Assembly (NCBI GenBank): GCA_039621445.1
Contig: CP154954.1
Span: forward strand, 19,082,642-19,146,641
Length of the DNA: 64,000 bases
Origin: Euglena gracilis
Taxonomy: Eukaryota
Direction: 5' to 3'
The notes under the pieces were generated by a model. It was not told the DNA's origin, did no database searches, and saw nothing but the letters and a program-made list of their open reading frames with translations. Shown in pieces: positions 55,301 to 58,300 of the stretch (position 1 is the first letter of the stretch; each line of letters opens with the position of its first letter). The position numbers and the translations under genes are program-made.

Positions 55301-58300
55301 GGGGGCAAAAACTTTCGGCACTTTGCACCAAAAAAATTCCAAAAATGGCAAAAACCGCGCCTCTGGCGGCGGGAGCCCCCCCCCCCCCCCGGGAAGTCCC
55401 CCGCCTTCCCCCTCCCCCGGGGGTCCAATCTCAAAGAAAATCCCTACTCCAACCTCAGCACGGGAAACTGATGGCGTGGAAGTCGCTTTTGGGGAGGGGT
55501 CCGATGCTCTGTTCGACAGCCAGCCTGTGTGGCCTGCATATCGTCGTTGGCCTTCATTTGGCCAGCGATTGGCCCCAGCCTCAGGCGGCGATACCCCCGT
55601 TCCTGAGGCAGTTGTTGGACAAAAAAATAAAGCCCCATCCCTGTGAAGGCTGGGGACACCTTTCTTTCCTCAGGGTTGGAGGGATGGTCACTTTCGTGTG
55701 AAATATTGGCCGGCACACACGGGGATGGCACATACCCGAGGTGGGAGAATCCTATTCCTTGTCCATACTGCCATACAGAAAACTTACATACCCAGGATAA
55801 TTAATTTGGCCCAACAGCCAAATTTTGTGAGGGCAATCCGGCACTGATGGGGGGTTCCAACGAGGGACTGGAAAAGAGAGGCCACGCAAGCCCCAACAGA
55901 TTTGGGAATCAACTCTGGGTGTGAATATTTCTTCCCCTCTTTTAACAGAACTGATTTAAATAAAAAAAACTTTCAAAATTCTCTCACAATGCAAAAAGCA
56001 CACACTCTTTGTGGGAATAATCCTTTCAAAATGATGCAACACAAATGATCGAAAGAGAAGGAGAAAAAAAAGGACTCCCCCCATTGGTGTGCCATTTGGC
56101 TTCCCTATCGGTTGACACCTTTTTTGGGCCTTTTTTTCGCCAACAGGCACAACGACGAAGCCATGGACAGGTCCGCTCTTCACTTCAAGCATTGCAACAA
56201 CATTGCAGCGCCACCTTCAGTGGGGTCTGCCCGCAGCGGCGACCGACTGGTTTTTGGGGTTAGGTACGATGGGAATTCGACCATGATTTTTTTGATTAGT
56301 GCTTCGTGCACTGATTATTAGCTTGTTCACTGGTGGTTAATTGGGCTTTGCATACAGCTTGCGACCCGGTGCTTGCACTGCCGTGCGGCGCGCGGGACTT
56401 CCGGTTTCGCCTTCGCATGGTCGGGAGACCTGTGGGATTTCAGCTTCATTTTTCGGCGTAACATGCCGTTGGGGGGGGGGGGCGGAATCCCGCCATTCGG
56501 CATTCACCGGCACCTAAGCCGGGGGCCGCACAACACCTTCACGACGCCCTGCGGCACGAACTTCCCGAAGGCCTGCAGGCCGCGCTCCATCCAGGGGTTT
56601 GTTTCAGGACCTGTGGGAGGGGGGGAAGAGGGGTCAGGCCCATACCATGGCTTGCCGACCCCCCCGTCACTTTCCACTGCCAAAAAACCACTCAGTCACT
56701 TCTCAAAAACCAGTCGCCCACTTCCTACCCCCCCCCCCCAGTGGGTGGTGAGTAGCCAGAGTGATGAATCACTCTGGCCACTCAGCCAAAAAAAAATGAC
56801 TCGAAATCAATCGATTTTGGCCAAAATATTTCCGGACGTCCCCCCCCCCCCCGGGAGTGGGGAGCTGCTTTTGGGGGGGGTCAATTTTGGGGTTCGCGCC
56901 GCTTGTAGTGCAAAAAAAAATGCAAAAAGCGCAAAAAAGCGCAAAAATGCAAAACAAAGAAATGCAAGTTAATGGAAAATTCCCTTAGGAGCTCCCCAAG
57001 GCTGAACACACCAAAATTGCAACCTCTGATATCATCCACTTAAATATCATCATGTAAACACTGCTAATGTGAGATTGGTCAAAAATGAGTGTGCAACTTC
57101 CAGTTGTTAATGGGCAATTTGGCTGTGCGATTGCCTAAAAAGAGTCGGAAAGGCAAATTATGCAAAGCAAATGCAAAAAAATGCAACTTTTCAGGATTCC
57201 TTGTGCAAAAAATGCAAATTATTCAACTTGCATATCCCCCCCCGGCGGATATGCCCTGCAGGGGAGGGGTGGTAACGGGAGGGTTACGGTAGAGGGATAG
57301 ACCGCAGGGTCTTGGTCTCGAACCTCCTCGAACGACATTCGAGGAGGGTTTCGAACTCCTAAACATATCAATAGGTTTGAGACCCTCCTCAAATGTCGTT
57401 CGAGGTCGTTTGAAGAGAGTCCCAAAAATAACAAAATATCTTGTGTTGCATATGCCCCGTGCGTGATTTGGCGGAAAAACTGTTTGCACGTGTCGTGAGA
57501 CCCACATGCACATACACAGGAGGTTCGAAATCCTCCTTGACGTTCGAGGAGTTTCGAGGAGGGTTGTTAAAGCCCCCCCCCCCCAAGAGGGGGGTTTAGG
57601 TACATTCGAGGAGGCTCGACCTCGAACGTTCGAGCTCAAATCTCCTCTTGCCACTCAGCCCAACCCCCAACCACCCACCGCCACCCCCTGGGTCACCAAA
57701 CCAAAAAAAAAAAACTCTGGCTCCATCTGGGTGAAGGATGCCTGGAACCGGTGCAGCTCGGCAAACACCGTGGGCGGCATGGCGGTGGCCGTGAACTGCA
57801 GCCGGGCGATGCGGTCCATCGGGGACGGGGCCCCTCTGCAGGCAGAGGAGAGGGGCCCCGCCCATCGTGTCCATACCGACCCCCTGGCTGGATTGACTGC
57901 ACCCGCTTCGGAACACCGGGCGGACGGTGCCAAAGACCCTGTGAACTCCACTCAAACTTACGGTATTTCCGGGGAGCATAGGCATATTGTTTCATAGACA
58001 TGTAGACATAGACATATAGACATTGACATACAGACATGCACATATAGACATATGCGCGTTTTTGTGTGTGTTGTGTGTGTATAAATATGCGCACGTGTGT
58101 CTATGTGTCTGTGTGTGTTCACCTTGCCATGGGTGGATATTTACCCGGCCTGAATCGTGGCAGTGATTCGGAGAGAATGGGGCGGAGGGTCCCCGGGCCC
58201 TTTGATTAGCGTGCGGAGCCGGGAGGCCAGCCACAGGCCCATGCCGAGGGGTAGCAGGACGGCGATGGCGCTCACGATACCGATGACGACGATCGGCGCC

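Follow-up and report, generated by a model that had tools for sequence, protein, structure and literature searches.

A nonconventional intron of a Euglena gracilis cyclase gene with transposon-like ends and a perfect 8-bp direct repeat

The stretch of DNA considered here, called the window throughout, comprises 64,000 nucleotides of Euglena gracilis (assembly GCA_039621445.1, contig CP154954.1, positions 19,082,642 to 19,146,641 of the forward strand) and is crossed on its minus strand by a class III adenylate/guanylate cyclase gene, the coding sequence of which is interrupted at 56584-57727 by an intron with the build of a DNA transposon insertion. The exons of the gene were delineated with P0001, which is the transcript-derived EukProt protein EG_transcript_2311 (798 amino acids, PF00211) and was found with a 40-amino-acid translation of the exon upstream of the site, 83% of which it matches at 100% identity. 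Mapped on the minus strand of the window, P0001 falls into 22 collinear exon pieces, which run from 64000 to 34378 with 21 introns between them, while its N-terminal 197 residues are encoded outside the window. The coordinates of the gene, the insertion and the related elements are collected in Table 1.

The insertion and its absence from the transcript

Read on the minus strand, 57727-56584 consists of GATGGAGC-CAG...CTG-GATGGAGC, a perfect 8-bp direct repeat with an element of 1,128 bp between its copies, in the context ...TTCACCCA GATGGAGC CAGAGT(12)GG ... AAACAAACCCCTG GATGGAGC GCGGCC.... An earlier interpretation made from the DNA letters (the sequence-only reading) had proposed a perfect 8-bp duplication around CAG...CTG ends inside coding sequence and had called the element an intron. 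The duplication can be read directly at the site, and P0001 bears out both the coding context and the removal, as it is continuous across the site and reads ...FTQMERGLQ... (...HRFQASFTQMERGLQAFGKFVPQGVVKVLIAGQ..., ...AELHRFQASFTQMERGLQAFGKFVPQGVVKVLIAGQ...), with a single 8-mer and no element. Because the protein is continuous, the messenger RNA from which it derives lacks the element together with exactly one of the two copies of GATGGAGC.

The two ends of the element form a terminal inverted repeat (TIR) at 9 of 12 positions, and in the register of the intron 11 of 14 positions of the terminal helix pair, with at most three consecutive pairs. The interior is made up of repeats and contains palindromes, and one sub-repeat in it (56666-56744) recurs at 59071-59151, 31506-31564 and 16579-16838 in a BLAST comparison against the window. 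DNA contig depth reaches 8,656-38,896 in bins of the element interior versus about 100-270 in flanking unique bins, which is to be taken as a rough sign of repetition only.

Sequences from four runs were mapped over 46100-60050; two of the runs were presumed to consist of RNA contigs, the third was a raw RNA run and the fourth a DNA run. An RNA contig of 109 nt (depth 126.7, one other letter) matches 57720-57818 from its 11th letter on, and since the match starts there, the contig parts from the genomic sequence precisely where the repeat has its outer edge, at 57720. At 56548-56591, on the other side of the element, 25 raw RNA reads run on into a paralogue version of the upstream exon with 5 differences in 30; these reads share the ...QMERGLQ... 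join, so that there, too, the 8-mer occurs once and the protein is uninterrupted. Most raw RNA reads at 56548-56591 stem from one or more expressed paralogues, divergent on either side, and the depth on these exons consequently overstates the expression of the cyclase gene itself. Neighbouring introns of the gene are represented, among the joints listed, by five found in RNA only, namely 58958>59735, 55570>56532, 54433>55530, 51716>53956 and 46226>46683. A further joint, 50450>52252, agrees with no model and is weakly supported, and was set aside.

Intron class and spacer register in the cyclase gene

With the exon joins fitted to P0001, none of the gene's 21 introns can be of the GT/GC-AG type, and for the 56584-57727 intron none of the nine protein-compatible registers yields such borders. 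A register with a spacer of 3 nt at the 5′ end and 5 nt at the 3′ end (3+5) is compatible with 15 introns, which carry at +4..+6 and −8..−6 the triplets CAG/CTG (12 introns), CGG/CCG (two) or CGG/CTG (one), while six introns fit none of these; as registers were picked among two to nine protein-compatible ones with preference for the motif, these counts are slightly inflated. One of the 15 in-register introns, 55571-56531, has an unambiguous RNA joint, and 17 of the 21 introns are slidable at the nucleotide level. The 56584-57727 intron has the 3+5 arrangement with CAG at +4..+6 and CTG at −8..−6 as one of several equivalent registers, among which the perfect repeat leaves the choice unfixed by sequence; in this register the downstream exon starts with A, a purine.

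Taken together, the 5-nt 3′ spacers of the 21 introns are rich in C (65 of 105 letters, 62%), versus none in the spacer GATGG of the 56584-57727 intron. Such a spacer fits a young, unoptimised intron, and from its unlikeness to the other introns' C-rich spacers, together with the perfection of the repeat, we infer that the insertion is recent. Of all 21 introns, 14 have C at position −1 and 16 are followed by an exon that starts with a purine. Intron 51718-53955, which stands outside the 3+5 register, possesses a symmetric 9-bp helix that starts 8 nt from each end (8+8), and its RNA joint is one base off the protein-based join.

Related elements in the window and their flanking duplications

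The ends of the inserted element belong to a repeat family, here family A, with the terminus CAGGGGTTTTCTTAAG-GACCC. The 16-nt CAGGGGTTTTCTTAAG matches 10 places in the window at no more than three mismatches versus 1.04 expected, and both ends of the element align with nine other termini as CAG-[G/A]G-TTT...-GACC(C)-G-run, with no variation in the C, A and G columns and in several of the T columns. The 20-mer at 56592-56611 is unique in the window at zero mismatches and matches 24778 and 31578 at three mismatches versus 0.00 expected (100 shuffles). The second family, B, is characterized by the terminus CAGGCACC, which occurs 16 times in the window versus 3.6 expected. A metagenome scan with the 20-nt family A terminus gave no matches.

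Table 1. Gene, insertion and related elements in the window (TSD, target-site duplication; MITE, miniature inverted-repeat transposable element)
Feature	Position	Strand	Remarks
Class III adenylate/guanylate cyclase gene (PF00211)	34378..64000	-	22 exon pieces, 21 introns in window
Exon for P0001 residues 391-423 (MDRIARLQF...FTQME)	57723..57820	-	P0001 mapping
Exon for P0001 residues 424-441 (RGLQAFGKFVPQGVVKVL)	56532..56586	-	P0001 mapping; RNA joint 55570>56532
Upstream 8-bp TSD copy GATGGAGC	57720..57727	-	3+5 register: first 5 nt exonic, last 3 nt intron 5′ spacer
Inserted element, 1,128 bp, CAG...CTG ends	56592..57719	-	CAG 57719-57717, CTG 56594-56592
Element 5′ terminal repeat CAGAG-T12-GGTTTGGTGACCC	57690..57719	-	End alignment; degenerate family A member, T-run expanded
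Element 3′ terminal repeat CAGGGGTTTGTTTCAGGACC (as read on +)	56592..56611	+	17/20 match to family A terminus
Downstream 8-bp TSD copy GATGGAGC	56584..56591	-	First 5 nt intron 3′ spacer, last 3 nt exonic
Family A MITE 31578-31804, 227 bp	31570..31812	+	Perfect TSD GTCGGCCA; 16/16 TIR; non-coding context
Family A element 41018-41956, 939 bp	41010..41964	+	Perfect TSD GTCGGGGG; nested in intron between exons at 44315 and 40768
Family A MITE 24778-24893, 116 bp	24770..24901	+	Flanks 6/8
Family B element 17587-18426	17579..18434	+	TIR CAGGCACC/GGTGCCTG; perfect TSD GTGACAAG; no convincing reading frame in flanks
Element 38947-39178	38939..39186	+	Perfect 8-bp repeat GTGGAGAC; CGG.../...CTT ends; nested in intron 38439-39229
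Element 45285-45592	45277..45600	+	TIR CAGGGCGGTCCTT / CAGGGCAGTCCTT; flanks 7/8; nested in intron 44357-46184
Intron after residue 223	62657..63922	-	CAG/CTG in 3+5; 3′ end is family B terminus CAGGCACC; flanks 5/8

The sequence-only reading had regarded 31578-31804, 41018-41956 and 38947-39178 as free MITEs with perfect 8-bp target-site duplications (TSDs). The duplications at 31578-31804 and 41018-41956 are indeed perfect and the flanking sequences of these two elements are unrelated, while 38947-39178 has CGG and CTT ends; the description as free does not hold for 41018-41956 and 38947-39178, which, together with 45285-45592, sit inside other introns of the cyclase gene. At 17587-18426 the proposed layout of CAG/CTG ends within an 8-bp duplication was recovered in full. 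Downstream of the cyclase gene lie 31578-31804, 17587-18426 and 12486-13261, the flanks of which upon translation showed no convincing coding frames, and the length of open reading frames (ORFs) across conceptual empty sites gave no discrimination in this GC-rich DNA.

When the 42 intron ends of the gene were compared with shuffled queries, two had an excess of look-alikes in the window, the 3′ end of the 56584-57727 intron (9 at no more than three mismatches versus 0.88) and the 3′ end of the 62657-63922 intron (5 versus 0.82); with 2 of 42 ends clustering with repeated termini, the proposed clustering of intron ends with MITE TIRs is not supported, in a 64-kb window that provides little power.

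Flank identity was scored as a comparison in the 3+5 register over the 21 protein-mapped introns. The 56584-57727 intron alone reaches 8 of 8; the others score 5 (two introns), 4 (four), 3 (four), 2 (six) and 1 (four), with a mean of 2.70 for these 20 introns versus 2.14 in the permuted null. A decay series of 8/8, 7/8, 6/8 and 5/8, as the sequence-only reading had described it, could not be reproduced, as neither 7/8 nor 6/8 is found among the 21 verified introns. Irrespective of the gene, exact 8-mers flank 12 of the CAG...CTG pairs that lie 40-6000 bp apart versus 2.25 in 20 dinucleotide shuffles (maximum 6), although about half of the 12 resemble chance long-range pairs; the counts for 7-mers (13 versus 7.9) and 9-mers (2 versus 0.45) are not raised comparably.

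An all-trinucleotide control for these 8-mer flanks was swamped by microsatellites and was replaced by a test on pairs defined by their TIR. Among 172 CAG...CTG pairs with a TIR of at least 10/12, perfect flanking repeats occur only at a length of 8 (three perfect, five at 7/8 or better), with none at lengths of 5, 6, 7, 9, 10 or 11. The inserted element itself, with its TIR of 9/12, is outside this set, to which 18742-19330 (7/8), 45285-45592 (7/8) and 24778-24893 (6/8) belong as further pairs.

Several side observations concern the two families. Single family A termini with no obvious partner are found at 53871-53886, 42336-42351 and 34525-34540, in introns or near the gene end, and may be truncated or nested copies. 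At 12475-12493 a gap of 3 bp separates two CAGGCACC termini that face one another (GGTGCCTG CCC CAGGCACC), which suggests adjacent or nested family B insertions. Close to each of its ends (17620-17683 and 18304-18415) the family B element 17587-18426 has arrays of the 10-mer CTGGTCGGCC; the letters of CTGGTCGGCC also appear where the end of the family A MITE at 31804 (CTG) passes into its duplication (GTCGGCC), and two family A duplications start with GTCGG, a recurrence that may reflect a target preference or coincidence.

Outside these families, a segment of 203 bp with perfect 8-bp flanks TGGACGAT and non-CAG termini, located at 47099-47301 inside a very high-copy repeat, is passed over by RNA contigs, by raw RNA reads and by one DNA contig, and may represent the filled and empty forms of another element with an 8-bp TSD or a deletion between microhomologies. 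In the cyclase gene, the exons 38363-38467 and 39217-39351 encode near-identical peptide repeats (...SAALPPGV..LDLSDAEPDKT...), both of which are present in P0001, an internal exon duplication.

Origin of the intron and the 3+5 register

The interpretation that we consider probable is that a MITE-like transposon of family A entered a coding exon of the cyclase gene and that the euglenid nonconventional-intron pathway removes it together with one copy of the 8-bp duplication; for the 56584-57727 intron, transposon origin and removal of the element plus one duplication are well supported. The short junction repeats of 1-4 nt at 17 of the 21 introns could invite the view that the 8-bp repeat arose by chance at an ordinary old nonconventional intron. 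A match of 8/8 has, however, a probability of about 1.5e-5 per site and the permuted null never rose above 6/8 in 420 pairs, while the ends of the element match a family whose other copies are bordered by 8-bp duplications, which leaves chance with practically no weight. Alternatively, intron and 8-nt repeat could both be products of staggered double-strand-break repair capturing filler DNA, with no transposase involved, as was proposed in 2016 for a strain-specific new gapC intron of E. agilis with an 8-nt direct repeat (PMC4770533), and the interior of the present element, a patchwork of unrelated repeats, would be in line with such an event. Both of its ends, however, fall into a terminal-repeat family, other copies of which, at unrelated sites, combine CAG...CTG ends with duplications of exactly 8 bp; as shared termini and a fixed duplication length are not predicted by filler capture, break repair appears a highly improbable source.

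A different objection concerns the RNA rather than the DNA, as the element-bearing copy could be a disrupted, unspliced gene with the messenger RNA supplied by an insertion-free allele or a near-identical paralogue. The residue differences between P0001 and the window, the expression of close paralogues and the absence of the exact join from the joints listed would agree with this. On the other hand, the depth of the DNA contig that covers the inside of the intron (place 57594) is 116.6, equal to the 115-150 of the flanking unique, single-copy contigs, which speaks for the insertion being carried by most or all copies of the gene in the sequenced strain and makes it unlikely that the RNA stems from an empty allele; no DNA joint at the site is among those listed. 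As the element moreover has all cis features shown to be sufficient for splicing (PMC12501133), and as its 20 neighbours, introns of the same kind, are removed, a disrupted gene is an explanation to which we attach very little probability.

With respect to the transposon superfamily, the putative hAT-like label is drawn from the length of the TSD and the terminal letters only. The termini of family A have CAGGG and CAGAG, which resemble the hAT terminal motif, of the CAGNG or YARNG type; family B has CAGGC. The target preference of hAT elements is nTnnnnAn, and of the six perfect duplications four have T at position 2 and just two also A at position 7, to which the full pattern applies. Common to hAT-superfamily MITEs and the elements of the window are the 8-bp duplication, short TIRs that start with CAG and short non-coding copies, while the Euglena elements differ by having no linked hAT transposase and by matching the target consensus in part.

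Duplications of 8 bp are described for hAT elements such as Ac/Ds, hobo and hopper (PMC7747358), and no report of hAT elements in Euglena was found in the full-text literature searched. DNA transposons with 8-bp TSDs that are documented from E. gracilis itself are two Merlin families with conserved 5′-GG termini (PMC8101967), and MITEs of Merlin or another superfamily with 8-bp TSDs could take the place of hAT with the intron model otherwise the same, an assignment that would also be easier to reconcile with the incomplete target pattern. In contrast to the GG ends of Merlin, the termini in the window start with CAG or CGG straight after the duplication, and the CAGGG and CAGAG of family A resemble the hAT motif; a source in Merlin or another such superfamily seems unlikely, if by no means far-fetched.

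A number of observations weigh against a transposon origin with removal by the nonconventional pathway, or limit its reach. No transposase-like ORF is present among the stop-to-stop ORFs of at least 150 amino acids in the window, as judged by eye with no domain search. BLAST against the window detected nothing in common between the interior of the element and the interiors of other family A copies, and only short sub-repeats elsewhere. Terminal pairing of the element is weak, as the end duplex has an energy of −13.7 kcal/mol versus −15.1 ± 3.1 with shuffled partners; a minimum-free-energy fold of the complete intron carried no information on how the ends pair. Twenty of the 21 introns have no flank repeat above background, and the 40 intron ends that do not cluster belong here as well.

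As for the transcript, the joint 56591>57728 is not among the 15 joints listed from the read mapping, a list that leaves out 468 others, and among the joints listed neither an empty site nor a polymorphism nor a back-splice read was seen. In several other exons P0001 and the window disagree at 1-3 residues, and P0001 is for this reason from another allele or strain, which leaves the allele of origin of the messenger RNA unproven, and the case for splicing at the window allele itself is made by the protein, one contig edge and the depth. The window, finally, does not show a transposon origin for nonconventional introns as a class.

If the 56584-57727 intron did originate from a transposon, a non-autonomous cut-and-paste element of family A would have inserted in the cyclase exon and duplicated its target GATGGAGC, possibly through a hAT-type transposase, as the termini are most like those of hAT elements. 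The nonconventional-intron pathway would then recognise the CAG...CUG inverted-repeat ends in the RNA and place its cuts 3 nt before CAG and 5 nt after CUG, whereby the element and one duplication copy would leave the RNA; since 3 + 5 = 8, the length of the duplication, the coding sequence from before the insertion would be restored. As CAG...CTG is its own reverse complement, removal would work in either orientation of insertion. Cutting may be performed by a non-spliceosomal machinery of the endonuclease/ligase type that measures from the terminal helix, a suggestion based on the published product: nonconventional introns are excised after conventional splicing as full-length circles (PMC11282704). 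Knock-in experiments in E. gracilis have demonstrated that CAG and CTG are each required, that the 5′ spacer must be 3 nt and that a 3′ spacer of 5 nt works best, with a purine favoured at the first exon base, and fully synthetic introns with such features are spliced (PMC12501133). The inserted element carries these published cis features, namely CAG and CTG, spacers of 3 and 5 nt and the purine, with a weak terminal helix.

Compared with known systems, the intron shares with euglenid nonconventional introns the absence of GT-AG borders, CAG at +4..+6 and CTG at −8..−6, spacers of 3 and 5 nt, the exon purine and junction repeats, and differs in that both of its ends belong to a repeat family with non-exonic copies flanked by 8-bp duplications and in that its own duplication is perfect. 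With the introners of Micromonas, Aureococcus, Polarella and Amoebophrya it has in common that a transposon with TIR and TSD enters an exon and is silent as the element and one TSD copy are removed. Introners are, however, spliceosomal, with signals partly co-opted from TSDs of 3-5 nt (PMC11282704), whereas here no GT/GC-AG border is possible, the code is CAG/CTG and the 8-bp TSD would contribute length only. The window contains one exonic copy of the family, and a burst of near-identical intron copies as known from introners is not evident there.

A MITE origin of euglenid nonconventional introns was proposed in 2014 (Milanowski et al., PMC3935182), and a 2024 review describes their junction repeats as TSD-like (PMC11282704). 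A 2025 study in PNAS left slidable introns, to which the present one belongs, out of its motif analysis and called the origin of the introns and the rationale of the 3+5 register open (PMC12501133). Within the full-text literature, which does not extend to subscription journals and supplements, no source equates 3+5 with the length of a TSD, names hAT or presents non-intronic copies of such a family in Euglena. The present intron appears to provide new direct evidence for the published MITE hypothesis and to add an arithmetic link, 3+5=8, that was apparently unstated before. In a young intron that combines identifiable family ends, an intact footprint and a footprint length equal to the sum of the spacers, the hypothesis becomes checkable, and the introner principle, by which an element leaves the RNA with one TSD copy, is extended to a non-spliceosomal pathway.

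A more far-reaching idea, which we advance tentatively and hold to be slightly less probable than its negation, is that the 3+5 offsets exist because their sum equals the 8-bp TSD of a CAG-terminated, hAT-like lineage, for which removal would amount to a precise excision at the RNA level that silences exonic insertions in either orientation. This would offer a rationale for the spacer lengths. If true, each young nonconventional intron should have an 8-bp flank repeat and free relatives, and a free MITE placed with its duplication in an exon would splice with no further changes. The match between offset and TSD would then have let such elements become the majority intron class in Euglena, in E. 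agilis about 70% of all introns (PMC12501133).

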